This document shows positions 8,929 to 64,000 of a stretch of 64,000 nt of DNA, in pieces. A model generated the notes under the pieces. The model saw only the letters and a list, made by a program, of their open reading frames with translations, was not told the origin of the DNA and searched no databases. Each line of letters starts with the position of its first letter. The stretch's first letter is position 1. A program made the translations under genes and the position numbers. This DNA comes from Burkholderiales bacterium (GTDB taxonomy: Bacteria > Pseudomonadota > Gammaproteobacteria > Burkholderiales > SG8-41), in contig JAUXMZ010000075.1 in the NCBI GenBank assembly GCA_030683105.1, positions 17,545 through 81,544 on the forward strand, in the 5' to 3' direction.

Positions 8929-8942
8929 TGCAAGCGCTTGCA
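8929..8942. promoter_or_regulatory. Candidate LacI-family operator in the xsc/tauE divergent region
   Basis: Perfect palindrome TGCAAGCGCTTGCA fits the LacI/GalR consensus TGNAANCGNTTNCA; the LacI gene follows xsc. Confidence 0.65.
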
Positions 8943-9285: not shown

Positions 9286-9295
9286 GCCGCGAACC

Positions 9296-10072: not shown

Positions 10073-10134
10073 CACCTCGGCAAACAAAACGGCCGGCGAT
10101 TAGCCGGCCGTGCCGCACTGCTTAACGACCGCGT

Positions 10135-10443: not shown

Positions 10444-10668
10444 GTTTTCTCCGATATACCTGACTATGCTAGTCGGGAATTATTTTAGCGGTTAACCGAG
10501 GCACTCGTCAAGCGTTGTTCAAGCGTCCGCAAAGACCTCCCGTCGCCAGCCACTTCACGATGCGTTGCCGGACGGTGGCAGAACAAGTAACCTGCAGTCA
10601 AAGCCACCAGCAGTCTGCCGGACTTGGCTCGATTCACCGGTCGCCTCGTTCTTAAGTTTTTTCATGTT

Positions 10669-10702
10669 AGGAGTTTGTCGGGGCTAAGTCCAACAAACTC
10701 CT
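10669..10702. repeat. 34-bp REP-like palindrome, copy 2
   Basis: AGGAGTTTGTCGG-GGCTAAGT-CCAACAAACTCCT. Confidence 0.88.
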
Positions 10703-10739
10703 AGAGCCAAAATAATTTTCTCGATGCGCGTGTATTGTA

Positions 10740-14908: not shown

Positions 14909-14925
14909 GGCCTGTTGCGCAGAAA

Positions 14926-15750: not shown

Positions 15751-15816
15751 GAATCGACCATGCCACGGCTGTGTGCGGGACGGTTTCGTGCGCCGGCATC
15801 ATGAGCGAAACCCGGC

Positions 15817-16908: not shown

Positions 16909-16918
16909 GCAAGACCAG

Positions 16919-16946
16919 TGATTGGTGATTGGTGATTGGTGATTGG
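16919..16946. repeat. Heptamer tandem repeat (TGATTGG)4
   Basis: Four exact copies, 10 bp upstream of the prfA start. Confidence 0.95.
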
Positions 16947-17006
16947 CAGACATCGAACCTGCGTCGCAGGTTGTTTGCTTGCCGTTTGCTGCCGCCCGCC
17001 CCTATG

Positions 17007-44298: not shown

Positions 44299-45399
44299 TT
44301 ATAATCGTATTGAAAACACGGAAATCGTCTCCATTAAGCCGCGCAATTCCATATTGCCGCGCGGTACGACGCGGCTTGCGGGCACCAGCTTGCGGATCGA
44401 CTCGAAGAGTTCGCCCGAAACCAGGGCCTCGCCCGCCACTGCTGCCTGCATGAGGCGCGAAGCGATATTCACCGTGTTGCCGATCACGGTGTAGCTCATG
44501 AAATTCGGCGAGCCTACGTTGCCGATGACGGCCTCGCCGCGGCACATCCCGATGCCCAGGCCGCCGGTGATGTCGTAGTGTTCGCGCCAGCGTGCCGCCA
44601 CCGACCCGAAGCGCGACTGCATCTCCTTGGCGGTGGCCCAGGCGCGCGCCGCGGCATTGGGCTGCGGAAAGGGCACGTTGAAGCCCACGAGCAGGCAGTC
44701 CCCTGACATATTGAAAATCGTGCCGTCGTAATGGTGAGCCGCTGCGGTGAGCGCCGCGAAATACTCGTTCAGCATTTCCACGAGCGGTTCCACGTCGATT
44801 ACCTCGGTCATGTGGGTAAAGCCGCGCAAGTCAGCGAACATGACCACCACCTCGGCGCGCTGCGCCTTGGCGCCGAATGGCACGGTTTCGCTGATGATGC
44901 GTTCGACCAGGCGCGGCGAGACATAGCGCGAGAACGCCTTCTGGATCGACTCGCGGTGCGCTGCCGCCGCGAGCGTGTTTCTCATCCGCAGCGCCAGTTC
45001 GCTGGGGTCGACAGGCTTGCGCAGAAAATCGGTCGCCCCGAGATCAAGTGCTCTCAGCTTTGTTTCTGGATCCTCGGCGGTAGTAAGGACGATGGTCGGA
45101 ATGTGTTTCAGCACAGGGTCTTTCTGCATCTCTGCAAGTACGTCAAAGCCGGTTACCTTCGGCATATTGATGTCGAGCAGCAGGACTTTGGGACGCTCGC
45201 GCCGCAGCATGGCGATGGCGGAGGTGGAGTCCGAGGTCGACGTGAACCGACTGAATCCCGCCTGCTCGAGAAATGCCTGGGTGAGCTCGATCACCAGCGC
45301 CTCGTCATCGACCATCGCCACGAGAGCCTCGCCCAGATCGCCCAGGTTCATGCTCCCGGATTGGAGCAATACTTCGTCCGCTTTTATTGGTTCGCTCAT
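44299..45399 (-). CDS. Response regulator receiver - class III nucleotidyl cyclase
   Basis: REC (VDDE, LLLDINMP, KP) plus cyclase (FADLRGFT, GDC, GNTVNIASRL). Confidence 0.93.
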   Translation of the reverse strand: MSEPIKADEVLLQSGSMNLGDLGEALVAMVDDEALVIELTQAFLEQAGFSRFTSTSDSTSAIAMLRRERPKVLLLDINMPKVTGFDVLAEMQKDPVLKHIPTIVLTTAEDPETKLRALDLGATDFLRKPVDPSELALRMRNTLAAAAHRESIQKAFSRYVSPRLVERIISETVPFGAKAQRAEVVVMFADLRGFTHMTEVIDVEPLVEMLNEYFAALTAAAHHYDGTIFNMSGDCLLVGFNVPFPQPNAAARAWATAKEMQSRFGSVAARWREHYDITGGLGIGMCRGEAVIGNVGSPNFMSYTVIGNTVNIASRLMQAAVAGEALVSGELFESIRKLVPASRVVPRGNMELRGLMETISVFSIRL

Positions 45400-45421
45400 T
45401 CATGCCTCCCTGCCGGCGACC

Positions 45422-47917
45422 TCAGGCGACCGCCGATGTCTCCTGCGGCGCGATGACGCGCCGTGCCATTTGCCGCAATTCACCCAGGATCTGTGCCACC
45501 CGCTCGCCTTCGGCGGCCTTGGCGGCGGTCTCGAGCTGCACGGCCGGCGCCATGAACACATCGTAACCCATGGAACCCGCGGACCCCTTGAGCCAGTGGG
45601 CAAAGTTCGCGATCTCCACGTAGTCGTTCTGCGATTCCATCTGCTGCGTCTCGACGAGCCGCTCGTGCAGCCTCACCACGAACTTGCGCAGGATAGGCTG
45701 CAACCGCTTCTGTCCGGCTAGGCGAGACGTGATGGACGTTACCGCTGTGTTGTCGGCGTTCGCCTGCGGCGCGTCGACTGTCGAGTTGATGGCGCCCTCA
45801 GCCGCCGCCGGATCAATGCGTTTACCGCCCAGCAGCAAGGCTATGCTGCGGATCAGCCCATCGATGTCGATAGGCTTGGTCAGGTATACGTTGCAGCCCG
45901 CCTCCATCATCTGGGCTTCAAATCCACTCATGGCATTCGCGGTCAACGCGACGATCGGAATCTTTATGCCACGCTCGCGAAGCGTGCGGGTCGCGGTAAA
46001 ACCGTCCATGACCGGCATCTGCATGTCCATGATGATGAGATCGAATCCGCCCTTCATGGCCATCTCGACGGCGACCTGGCCGTTCTCGGCCTCTTCCACC
46101 CAGAGGCCCTGTTGCGAGAGCACCAGCGACACCAGCTCGCGGTTCTCGGCGCCGTCGTCGGCGATAAGAACCCGCGCCGGGGGAATGCTCCAGCACTCCT
46201 TCACCTCGGCCATGTCTTCGTCAAGATGGGCATCGATCTGCTCGGGTGTGAGCATCGGCACGCCTTCCAGCGGCCCCGTCTCGAAGGTCACCGTAAACAC
46301 GCTGCCCTTGCCCACCTTGCTCGCCACGGTGACATCGCCGCCCAGCGCCCGGGCAAACTTTTTGCTGATCACCAGCCCCAAGCCCGTGCCGCCGTATTTG
46401 CGCGAGATCGAGCTGTCGGCCTGCACGAAGGCCTCGAACAGCGCGCCGATACTCTCCTGCGGAATGCCAATGCCGGTGTCGATGACGTCCAGCGCATAGT
46501 GCGGTGAATTGCCCGGCAGGAACCGGGCACTCACCCGTATGCCGCCGTGATCGGTGAATTTGATCGCATTGCCGAGCAGGTTGAGCACGATCTGGCGCAA
46601 CCGCAGCGGATCGGACCGGACCGTTTGCGGCACCGGGCCTTCAGCGGCAAACCCGATGCTGATCATCTTCTCGCGCGCCCTGACCTCGAATTCGCGCACC
46701 GCCTGGTTCACGATCGTATGCGGCGCACAGGAAATAAGCTCGACTTCGAGCCGCCCCGCCTCCACTTTGGACAAGTCCAGAATATCGTTGATCAGCGCAA
46801 GCAGGTGCGTACCGCTGTTGTATATGGTGTTGAGGTGCTTGGTCGTCTCGCGCTCGTTCTTGCCGAAGCCCCGCCGCAACAACTCGGTGAAGCCGAGTAT
46901 CGCGTTCATCGGGGTGCGGATTTCGTGGCTCATGTTCGCAAGAAATTCGCTCTTGGCACGATTTGCCGACTCGGCTTCGTCGCGAGCGAACTTGAGCTCG
47001 ACCTCTTTTTTCTCGAGTTCGGTAATATCCTCCAAACTGATCAGCACGCCGCCGGGTTTGCTGCCGGCGCCCAGCACCGGCGAGCAGTTCAACAGAAACG
47101 TGCGCAGGGTGCCGGCAGCATCCTTAAGACGTATGGTCTCGTTGCGCTGTATCGCCGCGTCGTTCAGCGCCTTTGTCCATGGATAAACCACTGCCTCGCC
47201 CGCGGGCGTTGCCGTGGCCCAGGGAATGGCGGCCACGCCGGTGCCGAGCATCGCTTCCGAGGATTTCCCGAGGAGATGGGCAAAGGACTCATTCGCCAGC
47301 ACGATGTTCTGGTTCCGGTCGATGATCAGCAGGCCCTCGGTCAGGGTATCGAGCGCCGCGCGCACGCGGCCCGGGATCGCGCGCGACGGGTCCAGTTGGC
47401 GCAGCACGCGACCGAGATAAAAATAAAACGCAGTGAGGCACAGCACGAAGATGAAGGCCAACAGCAGGACGCCGGGCCATTCCAGGATGCCGCGAATCCC
47501 GGGGCTGATCAGGGGCTCGTAGCGCATCTCCAGCTGGCCCCAGCGGTGCTGCTCGGCCCAGATCGGCACCACGAGCTGCGTATCGGTAGAGAGGCCGCCT
47601 TCCATCGGTTCCCAGCGCGTTGCGTGCTCGCCTGTCACGACGACGATGCGCCCGTCGCGGTCGCGCACCGCGATCGAGAGGATCTCCGGATTGCGAGCCA
47701 TGACGAAGCGCAGCACGGATGCAAGTCGTCTTTCCTCTTTAGTGGTCATCAATGCTGTCGCACTGGCAGCCAGGGATTCTGCCAGGCTCACCCGCGCGTG
47801 GCGTTGCGCGCTCAGGCGGTCCGGAACGAATCCCAGCAGCATGGCGAACACCACCGCAGTGGTCACGATCGCGGTGAGGCCAATCGCAACGTGCATTTTA
47901 GTGCTGAATATTTTCAT
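45422..47917 (-). CDS. Hybrid sensor histidine kinase (TM-PAS-HisKA-HATPase-REC-Hpt)
   Basis: [44 protein letters not shown] and Hpt AHWLKGSAG motifs. Confidence 0.95.
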
Positions 47918-50900
47918 GTGCGCTTCGCGTCTACGGGGACCTCGGAAAAAGATGCGATGGCCTGTTCGTCTTCCTCACTGGTTTCGTCATCCTCGTCATC
48001 CACGCGCGCGAGTATCGGCAGCGGGTCGAGCAGCCGCCATGCCGGAAGGGCCGAGAGCATGCTTGCGGCAAGCGCGCCACCGCGGATGAGCCAGATCACA
48101 TAGGCGGCCGTCATGCTGAGGCTGCCGGCGGTGAGCGTGGCGATGGTACGCGTCTGGATTTCGTCCTGCTCGCGCAGACTGTCCTGCAGGCGCGCCAGGT
48201 CGACGCCGAGTCCCACCGCGCCAGCCAAACGTCCCTGTTGTTCGCCCAGTTGGAAAAGATCCAATGGCCGCACCTCGATCTGTTTGAGGACGTCGGCAAT
48301 CAGTTCGCGTACTACCTCTGCGCCTGGCGCAGCAATCCCGTAGGTCTGGAGCCGGTACTCTGGAAGTCCGGCACTGGCGGCGAGCATCTGCAGGCTGCCG
48401 CCGATCGATGCAAAAACCGAGCTGTTCACGGCCAGGGGCAGGAATTCCGCGTCTATCGGCAAAGATGTCCCGCCAGCGGGCACAACCGGGCGGCCTGTAG
48501 TCGAGGCCGGCTGAGACTGCTGCGGCGCGTTGCCCCCGGCTTGCGGGGTAACGACCACTGTCGCGCCGGGCGCGGCCGGAGAGGCGGATTGCTGCGGGCT
48601 GGTGCTCGGCGGGAGCAGGTCGACAAGCGTAATAACGCTCACGGCGAGGGCATGCGTGACGACCGGAGACGACGCGGCGCCGTCGCTCAGCTCAAAGCTC
48701 ACCGTGCGGGTTCCGTTGAACGGCACCGCGCTCGCATTGGAATAGGTCACCGCGCGCAGCGCAGCCTGCCATTGCGCCAGTGTCGCCGTCGCGCCCGCCG
48801 AGTTCAGGCTCAGCGCCCCGCTCGCGGCGTTGTAACCGCCGGCAATGTTGCCCATCGTCGCCGGGTTGTTGGTGAAGCCGAGCGCGTCTTCCGCGGCCCG
48901 GAATCCGGCGCCGATCGAAACCGTCGCGCTCGCAAGCGTGACGTTGTCAAGATCGGCGACCGCCACATTGTCATCCACGAGTATCGGCACGCCCGCCGTG
49001 ATATAGGTCGCCGTACCAGGGCTTGCCGTCACGACCGGCGCGTCGTTCACCGAGGTGACAGCCACCGACTGCGTCGAGGCCGCCGAACTGCCTCCCTCGC
49101 CGGTCACCACGACGCTCACCGTGCGAACCGCGGTGCTGGGCATATCGCTCGTATTGGTATAGGTCACCGAACGCAGCGCCGCCTGCCACTGCGCGAGCGT
49201 CGCCGTCGCACTGGCCGAGCTCAGGCTCAGCACCCCGGTCGCGGCGTTGTAGCTGCCCGAGATGTTGCCCATCGTCGCCGGGTTATTGGCGAAGCCGAGC
49301 ACATCTTCCGCGGCTTGCCAGCCGGCGCCGATCGAAACCGTCGCGCTCGCGAGTGTCGTGCTGTCCGGATCGCTCACCGTCACCGCGTCATCGAGAACGA
49401 CCGGCGCAGACGCGACGTTGTTGCCTTCAGTGAAGGCCGTCGTCCCGCCGCTCGCGGTCACCGTCGGCGCGACGTTCGGCAAGACCGTGATGGCCACCGC
49501 GTCCGAATCCGAGAGAGACCCGCCGGCCCCCGTATTGCCTAGGTCGCTGCTGGTAATCGACAACGACGCCGCGCCGCTGTAGTTGGCACCCGGCATGAAG
49601 CTCAGCCCGTTCAACGCTGCGTTGATCGCCGTGACCGTGCCGCTGAAAGTCATCGCGCCATCCGCGGTGCCATCACCCGCACTGAAAGTCAGTCCGGCGG
49701 TGCCTGCCAGGGTGATGTCGCCGTTGGTACCGTTCAAGGTGACCTGCACGGAGCCCGCGCCGGCATCGGCGTCCCCGACGGAGATCGCGTTGCCGTTGCC
49801 CACCGAGAAAACCAGCGCAGAGTCCTCGTTGGCCGACTGCGCACCGGGCACCGCGTTGACCGGCGCGTCGTTCACCGGGGTGACCGTCACCGTCGAGGTC
49901 TGCGTCGCAGCCGTCAGTACTCCGTCATGGGCCAGCACCGTCACCGCGCGGCTGACCGTGCTCGGCGCCTCACTGATGTTGGTGTACTGAATCCCCTGCA
50001 GAATCGTCTGATAAGTCGCCACCGTGGCCGGCCCCGTGATCGACAGCACCCCGCTCGCCGCCGCGTAGCTCACCGTCAGCCCCGCGCCGCCCGTCGCCGC
50101 CGCCGCATCGAGCGCGAGCGACTCCACCGCGTCGCCATCGGGGCGCGCCGTCAGTGTCACGATCAGCGAGGCGAGGTTCGCCGAATCCACGTCCGCCAGC
50201 GTGCCCGCCGGCGCAATCAGCACCGGCGTCTGCTCGGTGAACGCCACCGTCACGTCCTGGCCCGCACTTCCAGCGTTCAGATCCACCACCGGCGCATCAT
50301 TCACCGCCGTCACCGTGATGCTCGAAGTCTGCGTCGCGCTCGGCGTGGTCCCGTCGCTGGCCACTACCGTCACCAAGCGGTCAGTCGTGGTCGGCGTCTC
50401 GCTCGTGTTGTCGTATCGAATGCTCTGCAGGATCGACTGATAGGTCGCCACCGTGGCCGACCCCGTGATCGAGAGCACGCCGGTGCCGGCCGTGTAGCTC
50501 ACCGTCAAACCGCCCGTCACCGTCGCCGAGAGCGACTCCACCGCGTCGCCGTCGGGCCGCGCCGTCAAGGTCACCGTCAGCGAGGCGAGGTTCGCCGAAT
50601 CCACGTCCGCGAGCGTCGCCACCGGCGCTATCAGCACCGGCGTCTGCTCCGTGAACGCCACCGTCACGTCCTGGCCCGCACCGCCCGCGTTCAGATCCAC
50701 CACCGGCTCGTCGTTCACCGCCGTCACGTCCACCGTGATCGCGTTCGGCGCCGCAGCAAACGCGTTCGCCTGGTCACGCACACTGAACGTGAAGCTCGCG
50801 TAACCCACACCGTTGCCGTTCAACCCCGGCTCGAACGTCAGGTTCGGAATGCTCGCTGCCGTGATCACCTCTGTCGCCGTCACCGCCACGCCCGAGAGCT

Positions 50901-53034
50901 TCAGCGTGCCCGCGCCAGGCAGCGCGTCAATGCGCACCGCACTCAGGCTGTCTCCCGCATCCACATCGCTAAAGCCGAAGTCCGCCGCACTGAACACGTA
51001 GGCCGTGTCCTCGTTCGTCGTCACCGCCTTGTCCGCACCCGTGGGCGCGTCGTTCACCGCCGTCACGGTAATGGTCATCGCATCCGTATCCGATTGGGCG
51101 CCACCGGTGCCCGTGTTGCCCTGGTCGTTCGTCGTGATCGACAACGACGCCCCGCCGTTGAAGTTTGCGGCCGGTATGAAGCTCAGCCCGTTCAGCGCGG
51201 TGTTGATCGCCGCCACCGTGCCGGTGAAGGTCATCGTGCCATCCGCCATGCCGTCGCCGACACTGAAAGTCAGCCCGGCGATGCCCGCCAGGGTGATGAC
51301 ACCGTTTGTGCCGGTCAGCGCGACCTGCACCGGATTCGTGCCCGCATCGACGTCCGCGATGGAAATCGCGTTGCCGCCGGCCACGGAGAATACCAGCGCC
51401 GTGTCTTCGGCGGTCGACTGCGCGCCCGGTACTGTGTTCACCGGCGCGTCGTTCACCGCCGACACCGTGATAAACGAGAACCGCTCCACGCTCGGCGTGG
51501 TCCCGTCGCTGGCCACCACCGACACGATGCGGTCGGTCGTGGTCGGCGCATCGCTCGTGTTGTTGTACTGGATCCCCTGCAGGATCGTCTGGTAGGTCGC
51601 CACCGTGGCCGGCCCCGTGATCGAGAGCACCCCGGTCGCCGCCGTGTAGTCCACCGTCAGCCCCGCGCCGCCCGCCGCGGCCGTCGCCGCCGCATTCAGC
51701 GCGAGCGACTCCACCGCGTTGCCATCGGGCCACGCCGTGATCGTCGCCGTCAGCGACGCCAGGTTCGCCGAATCAAAGTCGACGATCGTGCCCGACGGCG
51801 CAATCAACACCGGCGTCTGCTCGGTGAATGCCGCCACCTCGTCCTGCCCCACACCCGCCGCGCCGTTGAGATCCACCACTGGCGCAGGGTTCGAGACCAC
51901 ACGGAAGGCTAGGTCCTTCGCGGGCTGCGCGGTGGCGTTAGCGAAGAAGGTACCGCCGGGGTATCCGGGAGAGGCGACTCCCACATAAACGTTTCCCCCG
52001 CCGACGCCCTTGACGCTGACGTAATAGGTCGTGCCGTCGGCGAGCGTCGCCGGCGCGGAAAGCGATACGGACATCCAGGCCTCCGATGTGCCGAGGCTCC
52101 TGCGCGCGACGGTTCCGGTCTCAATAATGCCACTACCGCCGCCAAGACTACTGCGCAGCTCGATGGTAATGTTGCCTCCCGCAGGGCTGACGTTCTTGTA
52201 CAGAACGAGGTCGATCTGGTCGACAGAGTAAAAGCCCGCTCCGCTGGTGTACTTGAACGACTGACTCCATGTGCTGCCGCTTCCGGAAATCTCGTAGACG
52301 TTGTCGGCCATGCTGGCGAAGGACGGCTCGTAGGACGTCAATACGATGCTCGGCAGCAGGTGGGACCAGGCGTCCTGCTCGCTTACGCTCAGCGCGACCG
52401 GCACGTCGATCGCACCGGTTGCATATTCCAGTTTCCAGTCGCCGCCCAGGCTCGTATGGCCGGTCGCGTCGTCCGAGGCGGCGACATCAGCCCCGGTCAG
52501 GCGCGCGAGCGTATCGGCCAGCAGCCGTCCCTGCGCCGTTGCCGCGACATCGCAGCCGTAAAGGAGGATATCGGCGTCCGCGGTCAGCGCCTTCGCCCAG
52601 CTTTCGACCCGGTCCGGATTGCCTTGAAGCGAATCGGCCGTGACCAGTTCGTTGCCCAGCTGGATGACGCCGTCGCCGCCGTGGCCGATGATATGCAGCG
52701 CAGCCACGTTCTCGCGGCCCGCGAGCGCCTCGGAGATCTGCGCCAGTCCATCCCGGCCGGCATCGAGCATGACGACATCGACCTGGCGTCCGCTTTGCGC
52801 GGTGATGTCCTGGACGAGAAGCGCGTAGTCAGGCGTGCGGGCATCGATGAATACAATTTCATGCGGGGCGTTTTGCACCGCCTGCTCGTTCTGGGCCGCG
52901 AACTCGAGATGGGGATCGACGACGCGTTGCTCCGCGGCGCCCGGCCCGACCACCGCCGAGGCCAGCAGCGGACCGAGATCCGCCGAGTACAGGATCCGTG
53001 GCTCGAGTGATTCTATGGTCGGGCGCTGGCGCAT
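47914..53034 (-). CDS. 1706-aa surface/adhesin-like protein: LEPR-XLL motif, DUF4347, Ig/cadherin-like repeats, C-terminal membrane anchor
   Basis: N-terminal [10 protein letters not shown]; DUF4347 (VFID...LHIIGHG...LLYGC...GGDWKLE); repeated VNDAP units; C-terminal YVIWLIRGG...[14 protein letters not shown] plus acidic tail. Confidence 0.9.
48625..51882 (-). repeat. Intragenic tandem domain repeats (order A-B-C-A-A-B-D-D)
   Basis: A ([20 protein letters not shown]) at about 51451-51882, 50299-50706 and 49870-50292; B (DAPVN.VPGAQS) x2; D (ATVSIGAG...NNPATMGNI) x2. Copies share long DNA identities. Confidence 0.88.
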
Positions 53035-53882
53035 TATCGTTTAGGATCGCGTTCTGCGACGGGGGGGTTGGCGTCGACACCGAGGTCGACCTTGCAACGC
53101 GGCCCGGCTGGCAGCGAGTAGTTCGGATTCGGCAACTCGAGCCTGATCCGGAAGGTATTGCTCGGGCCATCGATGATCGAATCGACCAGCACCACTTTCG
53201 CCTGCCTGGGCTTGGCGTTGGGCAGCTCGGGTGTGACCGTGAGCGACGAACCGACCTTTATGGTGCCGTAGAGCGACGCGGGAATGACGACTTCCACCCG
53301 CAGGGGATTGGTGGTGGCGACGCGCACGATCGGCTTTTCCTCGACCCGCTCGCCCCCCGACATGTAACGCTCGACGATGACGCCATCGGCCGGGCTGCGT
53401 ATGGTCCGCAGCTCGAGCTGCGCTTCGGCGAGTTGCAGCTCGCGTCCCCAGATGCGGCGCTGATCCTTCGCCTGCACCAGCCGCTGTTCGGCCACCTCGG
53501 CTTCCGCGCGCGCCTGCTCCAGCGCCTGATCGGAGATGAATTTTTTGCTCACCAGATCCTGGGCGCGCGCAAGCTTCTGGCGCGCGAGCTCGTAGTTCGA
53601 TTGCGCGGCCTGGATTTCCGCCGACACCTTTGCCCGGCTGGAAGCGACGCCCACTGCAGCCCGCTCGACATCGGCGCGCAGCATGGCAACGACCTGGCCT
53701 TTGGCAACGCGGTCGCCACGCTCGACCTTGACCGCTTCCACTACGCCGATGACCGGGCTGCCGACATCGACCATGCGAGACGGTTCGATCAGGCAGCCCA
53801 GCGGCTGGGCGCCGCTCACCCAGGGACTCGCTGCGCTGAGGAGTGCTGCAAAACCTATTCTTGCTGCGCTGCGCATAGTCAT
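53034..53882 (-). CDS. Membrane fusion protein (HlyD/RND adaptor family)
   Basis: Signal peptide; VGSPVIGVVEAVKVERGDRVAKGQVVAML, IRSPADGVI and SNTFRIRL motifs. Confidence 0.9.
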   Translation of the reverse strand: MTMRSAARIGFAALLSAASPWVSGAQPLGCLIEPSRMVDVGSPVIGVVEAVKVERGDRVAKGQVVAMLRADVERAAVGVASSRAKVSAEIQAAQSNYELARQKLARAQDLVSKKFISDQALEQARAEAEVAEQRLVQAKDQRRIWGRELQLAEAQLELRTIRSPADGVIVERYMSGGERVEEKPIVRVATTNPLRVEVVIPASLYGTIKVGSSLTVTPELPNAKPRQAKVVLVDSIIDGPSNTFRIRLELPNPNYSLPAGPRCKVDLGVDANPPVAERDPKR

Positions 53883-55840
53883 CTGCTTGATGTCCCCATC
53901 ATCGGTTCACGATCGAACGCCTCGTCCTGCAGGCGCAGCTGAAGGCGCAGCCGGTAACGCCGTCGCCCCTCCCACCATAGTGCCACACGCGCGAGCAATA
54001 TCCCCACCCAGCGCAGGCGCAATTCCCCTGCCCGTCCTGCCCAACCCGTGATGAACGCCGGCAGGCACGCGACGACCGGCGCCGACTCGAGCGACAGCAG
54101 CGTTTCGCAGCTTCCCGCCTCGCCCCGCCTTGCGCAACGCCCCGTAAACTGGCGGTCGATGCGTCGCGAGGCATTCGCCTGGCACAGCATCACGTGCAGC
54201 CCGCCGGCTCGGGCAAGACGTTCCGCGATCGCAATGTCGGTGCCCCGGCCCGCCATGTTGGTAGCCACGGTGATGCGCCCCGCCTGTCCAGCCGTGGCGA
54301 TCACGTGCGCCTCGTGCCGGTCCTGGCGCGCATTGAGCACGACGTGCGCGAGACCGGCAGCACCCAGGTGCTGCGACAGCACCTGCGAATCGGCCACCGA
54401 GTCGGTGCCGATGAGTGCGGCACCGCCGCGCGCCTGAATGTCCCGCGCGCGCGCCACGACGAAGCGCCACCGCGCTTTATGCGTGCCGAACACCCGGGTC
54501 GGAAGCACCACCCGACGCGAAGGTTGCCGCAGCGGCACCCGCAGCACCGGCACGCCATAAACCGCGCGCAGTTCCGCTCGCGACTCGATGAGCGTTCCGC
54601 TCATGCCGCACAGGTGCAGGTAGCGTGAAAAGAAACGTTGGTAGGTAATCTGCGCGGCTGTCACGAGCTCCGCGCTTGGCCGGCACCCTTCCTTGAGTTC
54701 GATGAACTGGTGCAGGCCGCGCGACCACGCGCGGCCAGGGGCAACGCGCCCGCTCGTGTCGTCGATGATGTGCACAGCACCATCGCGCACCAGGTAGTGA
54801 TGATCGCGATGAAACAGATGAATCGCGGCCAAGGCCATGCTTAAGGCTTCCTCACGGTAGCGGCGGACGCGCCACAGGGTATCGCCATCGGTCGACTGGG
54901 TTTCGGCCTTTGCGCGGCCATGTGCGGTAAGTTCAACCGCCCGCGATTCGGGATCGGTAACAAAGTCTTCGCGCGTGATCAGGCTGCGCGCGAATGCCAG
55001 AGCTCGCGTGTAATGCTCACGTTTGCCGCGATGGTCCTCGGCGCGCGAAAGAACGAACGGCACGCTGGCCTCGTCGAGCAGCACGCTGTCGGCTTCGTCC
55101 ACGATCGCCATGCACAAACCGCGCAGCAGCGTGGCAGGCGCGTCCGGGGTCGCCATGCGATAAGCCCGGCTGCGCAGCTCGCCTTCGACATCACGGCGCA
55201 AGAGACTGTCGCGCAAATAGTCGAAGACCAGTTCCTTCGCCGTGCAATATGTCACCGCGCAGCGGTACGCGCGCCGGCGCGCATCCATATCGAGCTCCTG
55301 CGTCACGACCCCGACATCCAGCCCGAGCGCGCCGAAGATGGGCCGCAGAGCGTCAGCGTCCCGCCGGGCGAGGTATTCGTTTGCGGTGATGACATGGACC
55401 GGTACTCGGGCGAGCGCAGCGGTAGCCGCCGCCAGCGCCGCCGCCAGCGTCTTACCTTCGCCGGTCGGCATTTCAACCAGGCGACGGTTGAGCATGGCGC
55501 GAGCGGCGATCATCTGCCCGGGGTACGGCCGCTGTCCCGTCTGGCGATTCGAGATCTCGGAAAAGAGGGCAAATGCCGCCACCTGCAGGTCGTCCGCCAA
55601 CCCGCGGCGCGCGAACTGCTGGCGCACCCTGTGCACTTCGCTTGCACACTGTTCCGTAGACAAACGAATCATTGCCGGTTGCAGCGCCTCGACGGCGCGC
55701 AGGAAAGCGGCATGGGGCGGCACGCGGTTGGCAACTCGCGCTGCCCGGCGCGCGAGCCAACCGGCGCCATTGCCGCGCCGCTCGGGATAATGGCCCCACA
55801 GCACCCCCGGAATAGGCAGTTCGGCTGATCGCATGTTCAT
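53879..55840 (-). CDS. Secondary SecA-like (SecA_DEAD) ATPase lacking the C-terminal scaffold/wing domains (653 aa)
   Basis: EMPTGEGKT, VITANEYLARRD, DYLRD, VDEADSVLLDEA, GMSGT, ATNMAGRGTDI and RRIDRQ..GRCARRGEAG; the protein ends about 60 aa later. ATG 55840 overlaps the upstream TGA. Confidence 0.9.
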   Translation of the reverse strand: MNMRSAELPIPGVLWGHYPERRGNGAGWLARRAARVANRVPPHAAFLRAVEALQPAMIRLSTEQCASEVHRVRQQFARRGLADDLQVAAFALFSEISNRQTGQRPYPGQMIAARAMLNRRLVEMPTGEGKTLAAALAAATAALARVPVHVITANEYLARRDADALRPIFGALGLDVGVVTQELDMDARRRAYRCAVTYCTAKELVFDYLRDSLLRRDVEGELRSRAYRMATPDAPATLLRGLCMAIVDEADSVLLDEASVPFVLSRAEDHRGKREHYTRALAFARSLITREDFVTDPESRAVELTAHGRAKAETQSTDGDTLWRVRRYREEALSMALAAIHLFHRDHHYLVRDGAVHIIDDTSGRVAPGRAWSRGLHQFIELKEGCRPSAELVTAAQITYQRFFSRYLHLCGMSGTLIESRAELRAVYGVPVLRVPLRQPSRRVVLPTRVFGTHKARWRFVVARARDIQARGGAALIGTDSVADSQVLSQHLGAAGLAHVVLNARQDRHEAHVIATAGQAGRITVATNMAGRGTDIAIAERLARAGGLHVMLCQANASRRIDRQFTGRCARRGEAGSCETLLSLESAPVVACLPAFITGWAGRAGELRLRWVGILLARVALWWEGRRRYRLRLQLRLQDEAFDREPMMGTSSR

Positions 55841-57978
55841 GCCACCGGGTTGAAATGCTTGAGGAAGAGCTGGCGCAGGCGGCGATACCACTGCCCGGCC
55901 AGCGGTTCGGAACCCAGATCGAAGCGCACCCACACGCGCTGTCCGAGGCTGCGCAATGCTTCGCCTTGCAGTTCGAGATCAAAAAGGAACACCGGCTCCA
56001 GCGTCCGCATCCCTTCCTTGTCGGCGGGATCCGTGGCGTGGCGGCCCCCGCCGCGTTCGCCAAGCGCGGGGCTGGGAAGCGCATGAGCGGCGGCAGGCGC
56101 CGCACGCTCGAGCCGGGCCGGCATCGGCGATCCCCGTCCTGGCAACAGAACTTCAGCGCCGCGGCTGCTGGCACGCAAAAGGGGCGCACTCTCGTTGGGG
56201 ACGACCGCGCGAACGGCCGTGGGTGCCGAGCTCAGGATATAACCCAGCATCGCGCCTTTTTTCAAGAAGGCGCCTGGCAGATCCTCGCTGTGCGGCAGGA
56301 CCAGCTGACCCGTCACTTTGCTGCGCACGGTCAAATAACCGATGCGCTCCTCGATGCGTTCCAGTTCGGACTGCGCGCGGACCAGCTCCTCGGTCACGTT
56401 TTTCGCTTGCGCCGGGTCGCTCAGCAGCGACTGGTAGCGCTGCGCCTCCAGGGCCTGCACGCGCGAGCGCAAGGCGATGTGCTCGGTCTGAAGCATGGGC
56501 TCGGCAAGCTCCACCAGCGGCGTCCCGGGGTGGACGACTTCGCCTTCGCGTGCCAGAACCCGCAGGACAAAACCCTCTGTTTCCGCTCTGACCTGTGCGC
56601 GCTCGGAGGGCCATACCACCCCTTGCACGAGCAACATGCTCGGAAACGGCACGGCAAAAACCAGCACCAGCGCGCCCACGCCACCCAGTGCAGAGAAGAG
56701 CGCCGCGCGCCGTCGCGCGCGCCCCAAGGGCAGCGCGCTGAGCAACGATTGAATGGTGATGAACGCCGGGCGGATCACCATGGATACCAGCACCAGCGCC
56801 GCCGCCAGCCAGCCCAGCCATTCCGATTTGCCGCCGAGCCAGAGGATCAACGCCAGTGCCAGCGCAAGGCGATAAGCAAGCGAGGCCGGCGCGTAGAAGA
56901 GCAGCCATTTACGCTCGTGGCGCGTCATCACGGGCGCCGATGCCCGGTCCGTGCCGCCGAGCAACCGCAGCGCGAGATATGTCCAGTACGACTGACTGCG
57001 CACGGCAAGGTTGGGCATGTCCAGAAGATCACAGAACAGGTGATAGCCGTCGAAGCGCAGCAACGGGTTGCCGTTGAAAAGGAGCGACGACGCGCCGCAC
57101 AAGAACAGCGTCACGAACGCAACGTCGCTCAGCAGACCCGGTTCAACCTCGAGCCATAACCAGAGCGCGACCACCCCAAGGCCGAGTTCCACCATGATCC
57201 CTGCCGCGCTGACAGCCGCCCGATGCCAGCGGTCGCGAAAGGCGTTTGCCGCCGAGGCGTCGACATAAGGTGCCGGCATGAAAAAAAGGAAGGTCACGCC
57301 CATCTCGCGCACTTCGCCACCCCCTCGCCGCACGGCGATGGCATGCGCCAACTCGTGCAACCCCTTGATGACGGGGTAGCAAAACCAGGCGAGGATGAGA
57401 TAGTACGTCGTCGACATGTATTTCGCAGCGTGTGCTGCAAGCGCACTCCAGTTCATGGCGACAGCAACCACAGCCATTACCACTGCGGCCGCCCAAAGTG
57501 CCAGCGTTGTCGGGCGCAGCAGCGGACGCAAAGCCGGCTCCAGACGATCGAGCAGGCTCGACGGATCGAAAAGCGACACGGGAAAAGCCAGCGGGTTCAC
57601 CCATGGCCGACGGTTGCGCGCGCGCTTGGCACGCTCACGGAAAAGACCGGCGATATCCGGCGTGGTCTCGAACTGCACGAGCTCAGCCTCGCTCAGCCGC
57701 GAGAGGATGCGCACCACCTCGTCCTGCGTCGGCGCATCGTCGCCGAATTTTTCCAGGAGCAGCGTCCACACCTGGTTGACCGACGTGCGGCCATCGAGGC
57801 GCCCTATGAGTTCGTAGGCCGGTCGGTTGATCCGGTTCTGCCGCCCATCGGTTCCGTTGATCAACAGATACCAGGCCTCGCCTTGATAGATCTGTCGCTG
57901 CACACGCACAGCAGCCCGCAGCCGCGGATGCAAGTCGCTTACACGGTACCAAAGCGGGCTGAAGAGCGATTCGGCCAT
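55837..57978 (-). CDS. PqqD/RRE-like domain - M50 (site-2) metallopeptidase - MFP-like fusion
   Basis: N-terminal RLDGRTSV..V...L...DEVVRILSRL (PqqD-like); HELAH and NPLLRFDG (M50 Zn ligands); multiple TMs; biotinyl-lipoyl/coiled-coil MFP region. Confidence 0.85.
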   Translation of the reverse strand: MAESLFSPLWYRVSDLHPRLRAAVRVQRQIYQGEAWYLLINGTDGRQNRINRPAYELIGRLDGRTSVNQVWTLLLEKFGDDAPTQDEVVRILSRLSEAELVQFETTPDIAGLFRERAKRARNRRPWVNPLAFPVSLFDPSSLLDRLEPALRPLLRPTTLALWAAAVVMAVVAVAMNWSALAAHAAKYMSTTYYLILAWFCYPVIKGLHELAHAIAVRRGGGEVREMGVTFLFFMPAPYVDASAANAFRDRWHRAAVSAAGIMVELGLGVVALWLWLEVEPGLLSDVAFVTLFLCGASSLLFNGNPLLRFDGYHLFCDLLDMPNLAVRSQSYWTYLALRLLGGTDRASAPVMTRHERKWLLFYAPASLAYRLALALALILWLGGKSEWLGWLAAALVLVSMVIRPAFITIQSLLSALPLGRARRRAALFSALGGVGALVLVFAVPFPSMLLVQGVVWPSERAQVRAETEGFVLRVLAREGEVVHPGTPLVELAEPMLQTEHIALRSRVQALEAQRYQSLLSDPAQAKNVTEELVRAQSELERIEERIGYLTVRSKVTGQLVLPHSEDLPGAFLKKGAMLGYILSSAPTAVRAVVPNESAPLLRASSRGAEVLLPGRGSPMPARLERAAPAAAHALPSPALGERGGGRHATDPADKEGMRTLEPVFLFDLELQGEALRSLGQRVWVRFDLGSEPLAGQWYRRLRQLFLKHFNPVA

Positions 57979-59433
57979 CTAGACTCCCAGGGACCAGGTC
58001 ACGAGGCGCAGCCACTCGATCGCGCGATGCGTTGCGATCCAAAGCACGGAGCGCTCGCCGGTGGCGACTTTGGCAACGCCGCGCATCCCGGGTCGCAACA
58101 TGTTGCCCGGCGTATCAAACACCCCCTCCACCTCGAAGTAATTTCGTCCCTCACCCGCCACCGCCATGGGCAGAATGCGGCTCACGCGAAACCCGTGCGT
58201 CTCGCCAGGCGTCGCGGCTATCGCGAGGCGACCGGGGAGTCCGGTCCGCAGTTGACCAACATCGCGCTCGTCGACTTCGACTATCACGCGGAAGCGCTCA
58301 TCCGGCGCCAGCGTCATGAGGACTTCGCCGCGCTGCACTGGCGCACCGAGCGACTGCGAAAGATCGCCCTTGATCACCACGCCGTCGAACGGTGCCCGGA
58401 TCTGCGCACGCTGGATGTGGTTATTGACCAGCGTCAGCTGCGCCTGCGCCTCTGCCGCCTTCGCATGATGGATCACAAGCTGCGTTCTGTCTGACCGTGC
58501 AAGTGCCGCCCCGTAAAGGTTCTCTTCCTGCGTCAGCTCGCTTTGGCGTTTGGCGCGTTCAGTCTGCAGGTCACGCTGGGATAACTCCGCGATGATCTCG
58601 TCTGCGTGCACCTTGTCGCCGGGACGCACATTGACCTGTTCGAGGAAACCGTCGATCGGCGCCGCCACGATGCGCTGAATGAAGCCTTCAAGGCGTGCCG
58701 GCGCGCTGACGTGATAGGACACGGGGACAAACATTGCGGCCGCAACAGCAACGACGGCCAAGCTCGCCAGTCGCGTACCTGCACGGGCCGATCCGGCGAT
58801 ACGGGTGGCCGACGCACGCCAGTCATCAAGCGCGACCCTCAAAAAGGCGCGCTGGCTCTTTCTTTTCAATTCGAGCAGCGGCGCGAGCAGGCAGGCAACG
58901 TCCTCGCTAAACGCGACATCTGTTCGACTGAACACCTCGCCTGCGCGCTCCAGCGTAATGGCACCGACGGCGCGTCCGGCATCGACCAGGGGAACGGTAC
59001 ACACGCCGCCGCCGAGCAAGGCATGCACCTCGCTATGGGCAAGGGTCACCGACAAACTGGAAGCGTCCTCGGGCGGCAATACAATAGTGGTCGCCTGCTC
59101 TATCGACTCGTCCATGGCGGCGCCGATTTTCTCGAACAGAGCATGGCGGCGGTCGAATTCAGCACCATGCGAGGTCGCAATGACACGAATGGCACCGCGC
59201 TCGAGCCAGCCTACCGTGACCCGGTCGCAACGCTGCGCTTTCGCCAGTTCATTGGCGAGCGAAGCGGCGGATTGCGCCAACCCCTCCTGGGACAGCACAG
59301 CCGCCTGCACCTCGAGAATGACTCCCGCCGCCGTTATCGAACCGGCAGCCCGTTTTTTATTCGGCTCCATGGGAAGTTCGTTACGCATATTCCATGCCAG
59401 TTTTGGGGGCGATGGTTTTTCAAAGCTCGACAA
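57979..59433 (-). CDS. GAF domain - membrane fusion protein (HlyD family)
   Basis: GAF (CDRVTVG...VCTVPLVDAGRAVGAITLER), TM helix, VAAPIDGFLEQVNVRPGD, IRAPFDGVV. Start may be 59388 or 59370. Confidence 0.87.
   Translation of the reverse strand: MSSFEKPSPPKLAWNMRNELPMEPNKKRAAGSITAAGVILEVQAAVLSQEGLAQSAASLANELAKAQRCDRVTVGWLERGAIRVIATSHGAEFDRRHALFEKIGAAMDESIEQATTIVLPPEDASSLSVTLAHSEVHALLGGGVCTVPLVDAGRAVGAITLERAGEVFSRTDVAFSEDVACLLAPLLELKRKSQRAFLRVALDDWRASATRIAGSARAGTRLASLAVVAVAAAMFVPVSYHVSAPARLEGFIQRIVAAPIDGFLEQVNVRPGDKVHADEIIAELSQRDLQTERAKRQSELTQEENLYGAALARSDRTQLVIHHAKAAEAQAQLTLVNNHIQRAQIRAPFDGVVIKGDLSQSLGAPVQRGEVLMTLAPDERFRVIVEVDERDVGQLRTGLPGRLAIAATPGETHGFRVSRILPMAVAGEGRNYFEVEGVFDTPGNMLRPGMRGVAKVATGERSVLWIATHRAIEWLRLVTWSLGV
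59385..59399 (-). promoter_or_regulatory. Possible sigma54 -24/-12 element
   Basis: Minus strand TGGCATG-GAAT-ATGC with correct GG-N10-GC spacing; overlaps the uncertain N-terminus of the first operon gene. Confidence 0.25.
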
Positions 59434-61134: not shown

Positions 61135-64000
61135 GTGAGCGACGACACCCCCAAAACCAGCCGACTGCGCGCCATTGCCACATCCAAACTGGCGATTGCC
61201 GGCGCGACCCTGCTGCTCGTTTATACGATTAGCGGATTCCTGCTTGCGCCGTGGCTGATCCGGCAGCAGTTGCCGTCACTGATCGATAAGCATCTGGGCG
61301 CGCAAGGATCGGTGTCCGCAGTACGCATCAATCCCTTCCTGCTGACCTTCGAAGCTACCGACCTGACGATTACCGAAAAAGACGGTACCCCGGCCTTGCA
61401 GGTGGGCCGCATCTTCGTCGATTTTGAGGCGAGCAGCCTGCTGCGCCGGGCATGGACCTTCCGCCAGATCCAGATCGAGCGCCCGGTCATCCATGCCGAA
61501 CTCGATGCCAAAGAAAGTTTAAATCTGGCGCGATTGATGAAGTCTGCATCAACGGACACGATGCCTTCTGCCCGGCAGGCGGCGGAATCCACGCAACCGC
61601 CGCGAGTGCTGTTGCAGCATTTCGCGATCTCCGGCGGCACGTTCAGTTTTACTGACCGCACCCTTGAACCTGCAGCCAAGGCGCAGTGGGCCCCGGTAAA
61701 TGTCGAAATGCACGATGTGTCGACCTTGCCCGACCATCGCGGCGAGCATGCACTCACGGCCCGACTGGCTGGCGGCGGCAGCCTACAATGGCAGGGCAAG
61801 TTCACGCTGGCGCCGATGGACTCCAGCGGGTCGATCACGCTGAAAGACGCCAAATTGGCGACACCCTGGCAGTTCGTGCGCGATCATCTGACGATCGCCG
61901 AGCCCGCCGGTTCGTATGAACTCGGGTTGCGCTACCGGCTGCGCTACGGCAACGGCGCGCTGGATCTGCAGGCAGACGACCTCGAATTCCGGGCAAAGGA
62001 TGTTGCGATCGCACAGCAGCAGGGCGGCGCAACGTTGCTCAAGCTCGCGACGATAGCTTTCGAGGGCGGCAGCTTCGATTTACGGCAGCGCAGCCTCGCC
62101 TTCAAGGAGGTGCGCATTGCCGACGGCGCGCTCGGTGTCGTCCTCGATCAGGTAGGCAAGCCGGACTGGTCCAAACTGGTCCTCGCGCCTGCCGACGCCC
62201 AGCCTGCTGCGGCAGAGGCTCCGCCCGCTGCGAATAATGTGGCAGCTAAAGCGTCCTGGCAGATAGCACTGCCCAAAGTCAGCATAGGCCCATTGGCGCT
62301 CGCGGTGACGGACCACAGCCGGGTTAAACCGCTGCATGTGACGATCGCCAGCGCACAAGCCGGTTTCGGCGTCGCCGCCGCGGTAGGCAAGGAAATCCAG
62401 GTCACCATCGACAACGGCGCGCTGAAAATTGACGATGTCCACATCCGCTCCGGCGATGCCAAAGAGCCGCTGATCACGCTGGCCGCTGCCGAACTTGCGG
62501 GCGGCGCATTCGACCTCCAGCAGAAAACCGCACGCGCGCGGCTGCTGCGGCTGTCGGGCGGCAACACGCCGGTCGTGCGCGAAGCCGATGGCAGCCTCAA
62601 CCTGGCCGGCGCGTTTGCCGCTCGCCGCGACGAACCGCCGCAGGATTCCGGCTTCGACATTACGCTGGATCGCGCGGAAATCATCGGTTACGCGGTGACG
62701 TTAACGGATCGAACCTTTCAGCCGGCCGTGACCTACGATCTGGAGAATGCGCGCGTCGCGGCATCGAACATCGCGGTGCCGTTCAAAAAGGCCAGCCCGG
62801 TCGAACTCTCGTTGCGGATCAAGCAGGGCGGTGCGCTGCAGGCCAAAGGCGCCGTCGATCTGCTGCGTCAGACCGCCGATGTGCGCTTCGAGGCAACCGA
62901 TGTTGCACTGACGCCGGTCGAGAGCGTGCTCAAACGCCACACCACGCTGACGCTGGCATCGGGCAAGGCTGGCGCCAGCGGCCGCGTCATCTGGACCGGC
63001 AAAAGCAAGCCGGCGGCGATCCGCTATGCCGGCTCGGCGGCAATCACCGATGTTGATCTGAAAACCGAAGGCTCCGGTGAACGGCTGTTCAGCTGGCAGC
63101 GCCTCGTCGCATCGAACATCGATTTCGACAGCGCAGACAACCGGCTGGCCATTGCGCAGCTGAGCCTCGCCCAGCCTTACGCCAGACTGATTGTCACTAA
63201 AGACCGCTCCACCAACCTGGCAGGCATCATGCGCCCCAGCGCAAAGCCCGCCACACCTGCACCTGATGCTGGCGCACCGATGGCGATCACCCTGGACCGC
63301 GTCAGCGTCCAGCGCGGCACCATGGATTTCTCCGACCTCAGCCTGGTGCTGCCCTTCACAACCCACATCAAGGCGCTGGGCGGCTCGGCCAGCGGCCTGT
63401 CCTCGGCCCCCGACTCGCGCGCCAGCCTGAAATTCGAAGGTCGTGTCGAAGATTACGGGCTGGCGCGCGCCGAAGGCACGATCCAGCCCTTTGCGCCCAA
63501 AAAATTCACCGACATCACGGCCACCTTCCGCAATATTGCAGTGACGCCGCTTAGCCCCTATACCGCGACCTTCGCCGGCCGCAAGATCGCCTCGGGCAAG
63601 CTGTCGCTGGACCTGCAGTACAAACTCAACAACAGCCAGTTGGCCGGCGAAAACAAGGTGGTGCTGGAGCAGTTCACGCTGGGCGAGCGCGTGGACAGCC
63701 CCTCCGCGGTCGATCTGCCACTGGATCTTGCGATTGCGCTGCTGACCGACAGCGACGGCAAGATCGAGTTGGCCGTGCCGGTCTCCGGCAACGTCGACCA
63801 CCCGGAGTTCGGTTACGAACACCTGATCGGGCAGGCGATCAGCACGATGATCACGCGCATTGTCACCGCGCCGTTCCGCGCGCTTGGAGCGCTGTTCGGC
63901 GGCAGCGCCGAAACGCTGGGTGACATCGTGTTCGATCCGGGCAGTGCGCGCATCCTGCCGACCGAGTACGAGAAACTGCGGCGCGTCGCGGAAGGGCTGC
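61135..64000 (+). CDS. DUF748-domain (AsmA-like) protein, 3' partial
   Basis: Absent from the track because it has no stop in the window. GTG 61135; N-terminal TM YTISGFLLAPWL, VRINPFLL, PYTATFAGRKIASGKLSLDLQY and DLPLDLAIALLTDSDGKIEL motifs; the last line is in the same frame. Confidence 0.85.
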   Translation, partial: MSDDTPKTSRLRAIATSKLAIAGATLLLVYTISGFLLAPWLIRQQLPSLIDKHLGAQGSVSAVRINPFLLTFEATDLTITEKDGTPALQVGRIFVDFEASSLLRRAWTFRQIQIERPVIHAELDAKESLNLARLMKSASTDTMPSARQAAESTQPPRVLLQHFAISGGTFSFTDRTLEPAAKAQWAPVNVEMHDVSTLPDHRGEHALTARLAGGGSLQWQGKFTLAPMDSSGSITLKDAKLATPWQFVRDHLTIAEPAGSYELGLRYRLRYGNGALDLQADDLEFRAKDVAIAQQQGGATLLKLATIAFEGGSFDLRQRSLAFKEVRIADGALGVVLDQVGKPDWSKLVLAPADAQPAAAEAPPAANNVAAKASWQIALPKVSIGPLALAVTDHSRVKPLHVTIASAQAGFGVAAAVGKEIQVTIDNGALKIDDVHIRSGDAKEPLITLAAAELAGGAFDLQQKTARARLLRLSGGNTPVVREADGSLNLAGAFAARRDEPPQDSGFDITLDRAEIIGYAVTLTDRTFQPAVTYDLENARVAASNIAVPFKKASPVELSLRIKQGGALQAKGAVDLLRQTADVRFEATDVALTPVESVLKRHTTLTLASGKAGASGRVIWTGKSKPAAIRYAGSAAITDVDLKTEGSGERLFSWQRLVASNIDFDSADNRLAIAQLSLAQPYARLIVTKDRSTNLAGIMRPSAKPATPAPDAGAPMAITLDRVSVQRGTMDFSDLSLVLPFTTHIKALGGSASGLSSAPDSRASLKFEGRVEDYGLARAEGTIQPFAPKKFTDITATFRNIAVTPLSPYTATFAGRKIASGKLSLDLQYKLNNSQLAGENKVVLEQFTLGERVDSPSAVDLPLDLAIALLTDSDGKIELAVPVSGNVDHPEFGYEHLIGQAISTMITRIVTAPFRALGALFGGSAETLGDIVFDPGSARILPTEYEKLRRVAEGL

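Follow-up and report, generated by a model that had tools for sequence, protein, structure and literature searches.

A PqqD-type recognition domain, a site-2 protease and a membrane fusion protein joined in one polypeptide and genomically coupled to LEPR-XLL giant proteins

A 64,000-nucleotide stretch of a groundwater metagenome-assembled genome (MAG) of a Burkholderiales bacterium (contig JAUXMZ010000075.1, positions 17,545 to 81,544; hereafter the window) contains an intact open reading frame (ORF; 55837..57978, minus strand) for a protein of 713 amino acids (aa). It joins a PqqD-type recognition element for ribosomally made, post-translationally modified peptides (RiPP recognition element, RRE), a site-2 protease (S2P) core of the M50 family with seven transmembrane (TM) helices and an intact active site, and a MexA/MacA-like adaptor of the membrane fusion protein (MFP) type. 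We found that this fusion, together with the gene module in which it lies, is coupled in genomes to giants with a LEPR-XLL leader at the N-terminus. The best reading of our data is that it is an RRE-guided leader peptidase of the daptide kind, placed in a conduit for giant proteins that resembles a type I secretion system (T1SS) devoid of its ABC transporter, where it would bind the leader and cleave it. We regard it as an even call whether the fusion is indeed the cargo-recognition and processing subunit of an envelope module (GAF-MFP, M50-MFP, SecA_DEAD and MFP) for LEPR-XLL giants.

A first-pass annotation made from the letters of the window had read the protein as RRE/PqqD, M50 and MFP in one chain, and this three-domain reading proved correct by Pfam and NCBIfam profiles, AlphaFold2 (AF2) models and Foldseek comparisons. 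The predicted cytoplasmic RRE domain (residues ~18-103; 57670..57927, minus strand) corresponds to the N-terminal PqqD-like segment of about 100 residues proposed there. It passes the Pfam PqqD profile (PF05402) marginally, with 24.0 bits against a cut-off of 23.4 over residues 43-101, and matches the PqqD profile TIGR03859 over residues 18-100 at E 1.3e-4 (21.8 bits, under the 46-bit equivalog cut-off), while a profile of 36 homologues matches the PqqD structure 3g2b at E 4e-5 over positions 16-102. The full protein was modelled by AF2 with a 36-sequence alignment (mean pLDDT 83.7) and, as Foldseek with the whole model gave MFP matches only, the N-domain was also modelled separately (pLDDT 79.9). 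It adopts a fold of three strands (24-31, 34-41 and 47-51) and three helices (52-59, 67-81 and 85-97), whose best Foldseek matches in the PDB are all RREs (TbiB1, lasso-peptide B1, PqqD, LynD and TglHI, probability 0.96-1.00), with a TM-score on the target of 0.68-0.76 for the single-domain RREs TbiB1, lasso B1 and PqqD. Below these the list drops to unrelated folds of low probability. The structures of TbiB1 and of the lasso-peptide B1 protein were both solved with a bound leader, and R49 (in beta3) and Q85 (at the start of alpha3) are among the most conserved residues of the N-domain; by analogy, a leader may bind here between beta3 and alpha3. The PRLR stretch at residues 18-21 was considered as a possible leader mimic lying in the RRE groove and was ruled out, because in the TIGR03859 alignment residues 18-31 coincide with the ordinary first strand of PqqD.

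The membrane domain that follows (residues 156-446; 56641..57513, minus strand) is covered by the NCBIfam profile NF041824 and contains seven TM helices, where several had been anticipated, with an N-in/C-out orientation according to AF2 helices, hydropathy and the positive-inside rule. The zinc-binding and catalytic motif HELAH (residues 208-212; 57343..57357, minus strand) is predicted to lie at the cytoplasmic end of TM2, and the motif NGNPLLRFDG, with the third zinc ligand Asp310 (residues 302-311; 57046..57075, minus strand), at the cytoplasmic end of TM4. Given this predicted topology, the RRE and the active site would be cytoplasmic and the adaptor periplasmic. The M50 ligands, described as intact in the first-pass annotation (HELAH, NPLLRFDG), are indeed invariant: H208, E209, H212, N302, N304, P305 and D310 do not vary among 36 homologues, and the motifs HExxH, PxPYxD and NxxPxxxxDGY are kept in 42 sequences of the two clades defined below, at identities down to ~25%. 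Such invariance of the catalytic residues points to proteolysis in or at the membrane. By Pfam, the M50 profile (PF02163) gives 25.1 bits for the window protein, just under the cut-off of 27.2, and homologues of the sister clade pass it at 29-40 bits.

The C-terminal part (residues 447-713; 55840..56640, minus strand) is a periplasmic MFP domain made of a lipoyl domain, an alpha-hairpin (494-547) and a beta-barrel, in agreement with the MFP region expected after the TM helices. It exceeds the cut-off of HlyD_3 (26.6 against 22.2 bits), has MexA, AcrA and MacA as Foldseek matches (E about 1e-10 to 1e-11, the best at 3e-11), and the family profile likewise matches MacA and MexA structures in the PDB.

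The first two domains together have a precedent. NF041824, the profile of daptide RRE-S2P proteins, matches residues 18-401 at E 1.4e-46 with 159.4 bits, a score that lies far below the 300-bit equivalog cut-off and leaves the fusion outside the daptide family itself. For the daptide proteins MpaP/DapP, RRE-guided leader removal has been proposed (Ren et al., 2023; 10.1101/2023.03.08.531785). Like the fusion, they have an N-terminal RRE joined to an M50/S2P core; however, MpaP is devoid of an MFP domain, acts on peptides of ~50 aa and is encoded in a RiPP cluster with modifying enzymes, whereas the candidate substrate of the fusion is 1,706 aa long (up to ~16,000 aa elsewhere) and the protease is joined to a secretion adaptor. 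A more remote likeness is with the epipeptide M50 proteases YydH/LiaK (EpeP), which process soluble ribosomal peptides and are annotated by NCBIfam as maturation proteases, but have neither an RRE nor an MFP domain; their family profile NF058609 matches the fusion weakly (residues 167-332, E 4.6e-6, 26.5 bits against a cut-off of 225).

The fusion gene is the second of a tightly packed operon, entirely on the minus strand, which encodes in order a GAF-MFP (57979..59433, whose true start may be downstream of the TTG), the fusion, a truncated SecA-like ATPase (53879..55840; 653 aa if counted from its ATG at 55840) with a DEAD motor and a preprotein cross-linking domain and without the C-terminal half of SecA, a small MFP of 282 aa (53034..53882), the putative cargo (47914..53034), a hybrid histidine kinase with an Hpt domain (45422-47917) and a REC-class III cyclase (44299-45399). 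Translational coupling of the fusion gene is apparent on both sides: the TAG stop of the upstream gene abuts its ATG at 57978, and its TGA overlaps the ATG of the SecA-like gene as ATGA at 55837-55840. The operon is a member of the SecA_DEAD-associated module described by Kamneva, Poudel and Ward (2015; PMC4452313), of which the fusion is the second gene. These authors reported the co-encoding of GAF-HlyD, M50-HlyD, secondary SecA_DEAD and HlyD/biotin-lipoyl proteins, observed that an ABC transporter is missing, and suggested SecA_DEAD as the ATPase and the M50 protein, whose M50 similarity they found weak, as a possible pore; they named no PqqD/RRE domain and no cargo, and called the biological role "completely unknown". 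All four module genes are present in the window, contiguous and translationally coupled, in the same order and likewise without an ABC transporter, and an outer membrane efflux protein (OEP) gene is occasional in both descriptions. What differs is the link to LEPR-XLL proteins, the leader classes and the sister clade without SecA, which are features that come from the present analysis.

The fusion family is large. We obtained 3,355 clusters at E <= 1e-30 among 1.84 billion cluster representatives (50% identity), the best 150 of which are almost all ~700-750 aa long and match end to end, and >1,630 fusion proteins in a 90%-clustered collection, nearly all of ~710 aa. The homologues are named "putative peptide zinc metalloprotease" by JGI, and one NCBI record reads "PqqD family peptide modification chaperone". 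We examined 46 related cassettes, which fall into 26 tier-1 loci and 20 tier-2 loci (the sister clade). The order GAF-MFP/fusion/SecA-like/small MFP is kept in 24 of the 26 tier-1 loci, at fusion identities of 28-58%, and the same order was seen in three metagenome/MAG contigs. A SecA-like gene is present in 24/26 tier-1 and 0/20 tier-2 loci. At one locus (L004:12369-13965) it is split over two frames (tblastn q60-432 and q434-594) and miscalled in the source, by frameshift or assembly error. No TolC-type OEP gene occurs on the contig of the window, and six OEP genes lie at other places of this genome.

No ABC, RND or MFS transporter was found in or next to the 46 related cassettes, nor any ABC protein in the window operon, and the ABC energiser that defines a T1SS is thus absent. 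This absence speaks for a structural role, in which the M50 domain would serve as an inner-membrane platform or channel and the RRE only as a cargo receptor or chaperone, with proteolysis reduced at most to quality control, i.e. the clearing of stalled cargo or leftover peptides, as RseP clears signal peptides. A pore was already proposed by Kamneva et al. (2015; PMC4452313); moreover, the three TM helices that the fusion possesses beyond the S2P core (356-446) and the fused MFP, which puts the protein physically inside the conduit, would fit such a role. However, every catalytic and zinc-ligand residue is strictly invariant over ~25-100% identity, which argues that catalysis is central, the nearest characterised relatives are leader peptidases, and S2P folds are not known to conduct polypeptides. 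A purely structural role thus appears rather unlikely to us, and we continue to prefer a leader peptidase.

The substrate of such a peptidase is suggested by the genomic context. In the window, the next gene downstream of the small MFP has a LEPR-XLL leader at its start, as do large genes beside related cassettes. It encodes a LEPR-XLL/DUF4347/cadherin-like repeat protein of 1,706 aa (NF012209, 25.2 bits against a cut-off of 17) with a C-terminal hydrophobic anchor and an acidic tail, which is the putative cargo. Its leader of 19 aa (52978..53034, minus strand), which we propose to be bound by the RRE and cleaved by the M50 domain, consists of a basic N-region followed by the motif LEPRxLLSAD. 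The motif is kept beside cassettes whose fusion is only ~30-32% identical to that of the window (for example as ...LEDRILLSAE). By six-frame search, a LEPR-XLL ORF over the NF012209 cut-off is present in 18/18 genomes with a close homologue of the fusion and in 0/14 controls. Of 401 genomes sampled evenly across the phylum, the fusion family occurs in 95 and a LEPR-XLL protein in 57, and 53 of these 57 also carry the fusion (Fisher p 7e-35); similarly, 35 of the 38 genomes with a close full-length homologue are LEPR-positive (Fisher p 9e-32), phylogenetic non-independence being ignored in both tests. The LEPR ORF, which ranges from 1,700 to ~16,000 aa, adjoins the cassette up- or downstream in essentially every case where the two are on one contig. 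The module and its LEPR-XLL cargo are therefore genomically coupled, and the evidence for this is strong; the functional link between the fusion and the giant protein put forward in the first-pass annotation is upheld by co-occurrence, by adjacency and by leader classes that track the fusion phylogeny. At one locus (L008:11125-16889) two overlapping ORFs of 489 and 1,436 aa together make up the LEPR-XLL/DUF4347 cargo, the repeats of which probably contain a frameshift or were misassembled.

Four leader classes can be recognised, LEPRxLLSAD (that of the window), LEPR[FY]xLSGE, LE[DE]RxLxSA[DE] and LEPRxxFDGAA, and these map onto well-supported clades of a maximum likelihood tree of 42 fusion proteins: support is 100/100 for tier-2 and 100/99 for the clade with LE[DE]R leaders, and a single clade contains the SGE leaders. 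Leader labels are far more clustered on the tree than expected from shuffling (0/200 shuffles were as clustered). Consistently, the genomes with two cassettes (G006, G022, G146 and G134) have a different leader class beside each. This pattern is what orthogonal reader-leader pairs would look like, and we take it as supportive rather than decisive. Residues of the RRE that would switch along with the change from P to D/E in the leader (clade 1b) were also sought; P18 and the turn at 45-49, among others, do differ, and the divergence is too deep for this to carry meaning.

The sister clade (20 loci, L060-L079, e.g. L061:1037-15383 and L075:1-11772) helps to separate the role of the fusion from that of the SecA-like protein. 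Its members are weaker matches, with E between 1e-20 and 1e-40 and an alignment that begins near residue 130, and are likewise M50-MFP fusions of ~700 aa. Their loci show the order small MFP, (GAF-)MFP, fusion, with a giant DUF4347 gene nearby, and a TolC-type OEP is encoded in the cluster in 3/3 sister loci scanned for accessory genes. A SecA-like gene is missing from all 20 loci, an ABC transporter was not observed, and the cluster encodes no ATPase. The sister N-domain aligns in register with the tier-1 RRE (hhalign E 3e-5, probability 73%), and the cargo leader has the form (L/M)A-LEPRx[LM][LFY]D[AG]A, i.e. the class LEPRxxFDGAA, as in the stretch ..ALEPRVMFDGAA; this includes cargo missed by the 24-position hidden Markov model (HMM) of the leader. 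In this sample, leaders of the LEPR type thus occur without a SecA-like protein, and never without the RRE-like/M50/MFP fusion, which makes the latter the better candidate for the leader reader. At one sister locus (L061:10039-10920) a sulfotransferase (PF13469, E 2.6e-17) is encoded between the fusion and the giant cargo gene and may point to modification of the cargo.

The question of which end of the cargo would be processed can be approached by the same comparison. The first-pass annotation had left open two activities for the protease, removal of the leader or cutting of the C-terminal anchor. The latter corresponds to regulated intramembrane proteolysis, in which the M50 domain would cut the anchor of the cargo, or a membrane-anchored regulator, and so release or shed the adhesin, with the GAF domain, the hybrid kinase and the cyclase controlling this step. 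The C-terminus of the window cargo (47914-48160) has two short hydrophobic helices split by R-G-G, with the motif LPAWRxLDPLPIL, followed by an acidic tail (...DDEDDE), and this hydrophobic hairpin and tail are conserved in four relatives (L002, L005, L008 and L053). In favour of this, signalling functions surround the operon (a GAF domain in the first MFP, a hybrid histidine kinase and a REC-cyclase), regulated intramembrane proteolysis is the job of classical S2Ps, and the logic would be analogous to the control of LapA by LapG/LapD. However, the anchor motif is restricted to the cargo clade of the window, being found in 4/26 tier-1 and 0/20 tier-2 loci (tier-2 cargo ends in a soluble amphipathic segment), whereas leader, RRE-like domain and catalytic residues are conserved throughout both clades. 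Moreover, an N-out/C-in anchor would be opposite in orientation to the usual S2P substrates, and the RRE would be given no role. Cleavage of the anchor is therefore disfavoured, and regulated proteolysis of this kind seems to us improbable as the function of the fusion. We also considered whether the C-terminal anchor is strictly tied to the SecA-like gene and dismissed this, since locus L053 has the anchor without an adjacent SecA-like gene. As leader, RRE and active site are universal and the nearest characterised relatives act on N-terminal leaders, leader removal would be the parsimonious activity, and cleavage of the anchor at most a clade-specific extra.

A further alternative is that the cassette matures and exports a small RiPP-like peptide, adjacency to the giants being incidental or regulatory. 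It is suggested by the fact that RRE-S2P fusions are otherwise known from RiPP clusters, and by the name "PqqD family peptide modification chaperone" attached to the NCBI homologue. Nevertheless, no convincing small gene was found in the 0.9-kb region upstream of the operon, and an all-against-all comparison of the small ORFs outside large genes across 27 cassettes recovered none that is conserved, except an ORF of ~100 aa in four loci, just upstream of the GAF-MFP (L044:770-1090, L045:757-1059, L051:764-1063 and L052:773-1072, in cassette orientation) and absent from the window. We take this ORF to resemble DUF3467 (motif FANVVNVQGTxEQVDLFFG). The otherwise negative search matches the earlier remark that no small RiPP precursor was seen nearby. 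The operon also contains no modification enzymes, and none of the daptide genes (DUF-RRE, decarboxylase, aminotransferase, methyltransferase, short precursor) was found in it. Set against the very strong coupling to LEPR-XLL giants and the leader classes that track the protease tree, a small-peptide function is, in our opinion, very hard to sustain.

Leader processing of giant proteins, which we favour, could proceed as follows. In the cytoplasm, the RRE would bind the leader, basic-LEPRxLL(S-A/G-D/E), of a giant protein that is still nascent or unfolded. As in other RREs, the leader would probably add as a beta-strand between beta3 and alpha3 and so be presented to the M50 site, which at the cytoplasmic face of the membrane would clip the leader during or after engagement, near the class-specific small or acidic residues that follow it. 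On the periplasmic side, the fused MFP, the GAF-MFP and the small MFP would form a conduit leading to a TolC-type channel whose gene lies elsewhere in the genome, and in the clade of the window the SecA-like ATPase, instead of the missing ABC transporter, would do the pushing. Orthogonal pairs of leader and reader (LEPRxLLSAD, ...SGE, LE[DE]R... and LEPRxxFDGAA) would let several such systems run in one cell. More broadly, and as a tentative proposal to which we give somewhat less than even chances, the fusion may be the signature inner-membrane component of a widespread protein-secretion route of diderm bacteria, ABC-less, TolC-coupled and so far undescribed by experiment. In such a route, the RiPP logic of leader recognition and leader removal would have been scaled up, an N-terminal LEPR-XLL signal serving to address, trim and export proteins of 1,000 to >15,000 residues.

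Several observations weigh against the reading as a leader-processing subunit. Export itself is something that we infer, because no inner-membrane channel was identified. As many as 42 of the 95 genomes with a family member give no LEPR match at E <= 0.01; the five cargo N-termini of this kind that we looked at (two of them from LEPR-negative genomes) nevertheless all showed variant motifs missed by the 24-position HMM. Pfam PqqD does not match the N-domains of the sister clade, which only profile-profile comparison detects. The leader contains no hydrophobic segment, in contrast to the type-II TM helices that classical S2Ps cleave, although M50 enzymes of the RiPP type do act on soluble peptides. 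The agreement of leader classes with the fusion tree supports without deciding, since operon linkage alone gives the same pattern. Finally, some cassettes are followed by TpsB/TpsA genes and not by a LEPR gene. This was observed in a tier-1 subclade (L047, L048, L049, L051 and L052; ~7900-17100 in cassette orientation), where a TpsB-like gene (POTRA/ShlB-type) and a giant with a TPS domain come after the small MFP. The loci of this subclade with long enough contigs (L049, L051 and L052) have a LEPR-XLL giant upstream of the cassette.

Two known kinds of exporter offer a useful comparison. The first-pass annotation had drawn a parallel with the C39 peptidase of peptide-exporting ABC transporters, which is apt, although the daptide RRE-fused S2P leader peptidase is even closer. 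In peptidase-containing ABC transporters (PCATs) working with HlyD/TolC, as in the C39-like domain of HlyB, a cytoplasmic domain that recognises (and cleaves) the leader or cargo is part of the inner-membrane component of a tripartite exporter, as proposed here. PCATs, however, employ a cysteine protease, a double-glycine leader and an ABC energiser, whereas the fusion, unrelated to them in fold and catalytic type, combines an RRE with a zinc intramembrane protease and no ABC protein. The T1SSs for giant adhesins (LapBCE/LapA, SiiCDF/SiiE) similarly comprise one or more MFPs, a TolC-type channel (encoded in the cluster in the sister clade) and a giant, cadherin-like repetitive cargo. They differ in having an ABC transporter and a C-terminal signal of the RTX type, in contrast to the N-terminal LEPR-XLL leader, the three different MFPs and, in the clade of the window, the SecA-like ATPase.

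The module and RRE-S2P fusions are already in print, and the PqqD domain is tagged in databases. Among 8.4 million open-access papers and preprints, none assigned an export route to LEPR-XLL proteins, and the mentions of the motif appeared unrelated by title or abstract. In the literature searched, nothing was found that combines PqqD, M50 and HlyD, or daptide and M50, and SecA-like together with membrane fusion protein and adhesin returned T1SS papers only. The RRE in the M50-HlyD protein of the module, its coupling to LEPR-XLL proteins, and leader classes that track the protease were found nowhere in print.

To our knowledge, LEPR-XLL proteins are among the largest bacterial proteins. If the reading of the fusion as their leader peptidase is true, it would join an orphan signal (LEPR-XLL) to an orphan machine, the Kamneva module, to which neither a cargo nor a role has been assigned since its description in 2015. 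RRE-dependent substrate recognition would then reach from small natural-product peptides to megadalton proteins, and there would be a defined case of a tripartite TolC-linked system operating with no ABC, RND or MFS pump. For biofilm and adhesin biology in many environmental Proteobacteria, a peptide of 19 residues, a domain of 105 residues and two catalytic residues would offer a simple and testable handle.

The surroundings of the operon show some additional features. A large DUF748/AsmA-like protein (E 3.5e-242) is encoded on the opposite strand 1.7 kb upstream of the operon (61135-63999, plus strand) and runs off the window, and an OmpA/DUF748-like protein is also present at one sister-clade locus (L063). 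Second-messenger signalling is dense around the operon, with a dCache-HAMP-GAF-GGDEF-EAL protein (32392-35805, minus strand) in addition to the hybrid histidine kinase and the cyclase (44299-47917, minus strand), and related loci have GGDEF/EAL or PAS-GGDEF genes at positions equivalent to those of the signalling genes of the window. Finally, a soil library labelled "METAGENOMIC RNA-Seq" (X13) contains near-identical short contigs at window positions 54785-55304, 56442-56690 and 58501-58787. These cover parts of the SecA-like, fusion and GAF-MFP genes and may indicate transcription in situ, but may also reflect DNA carry-over.

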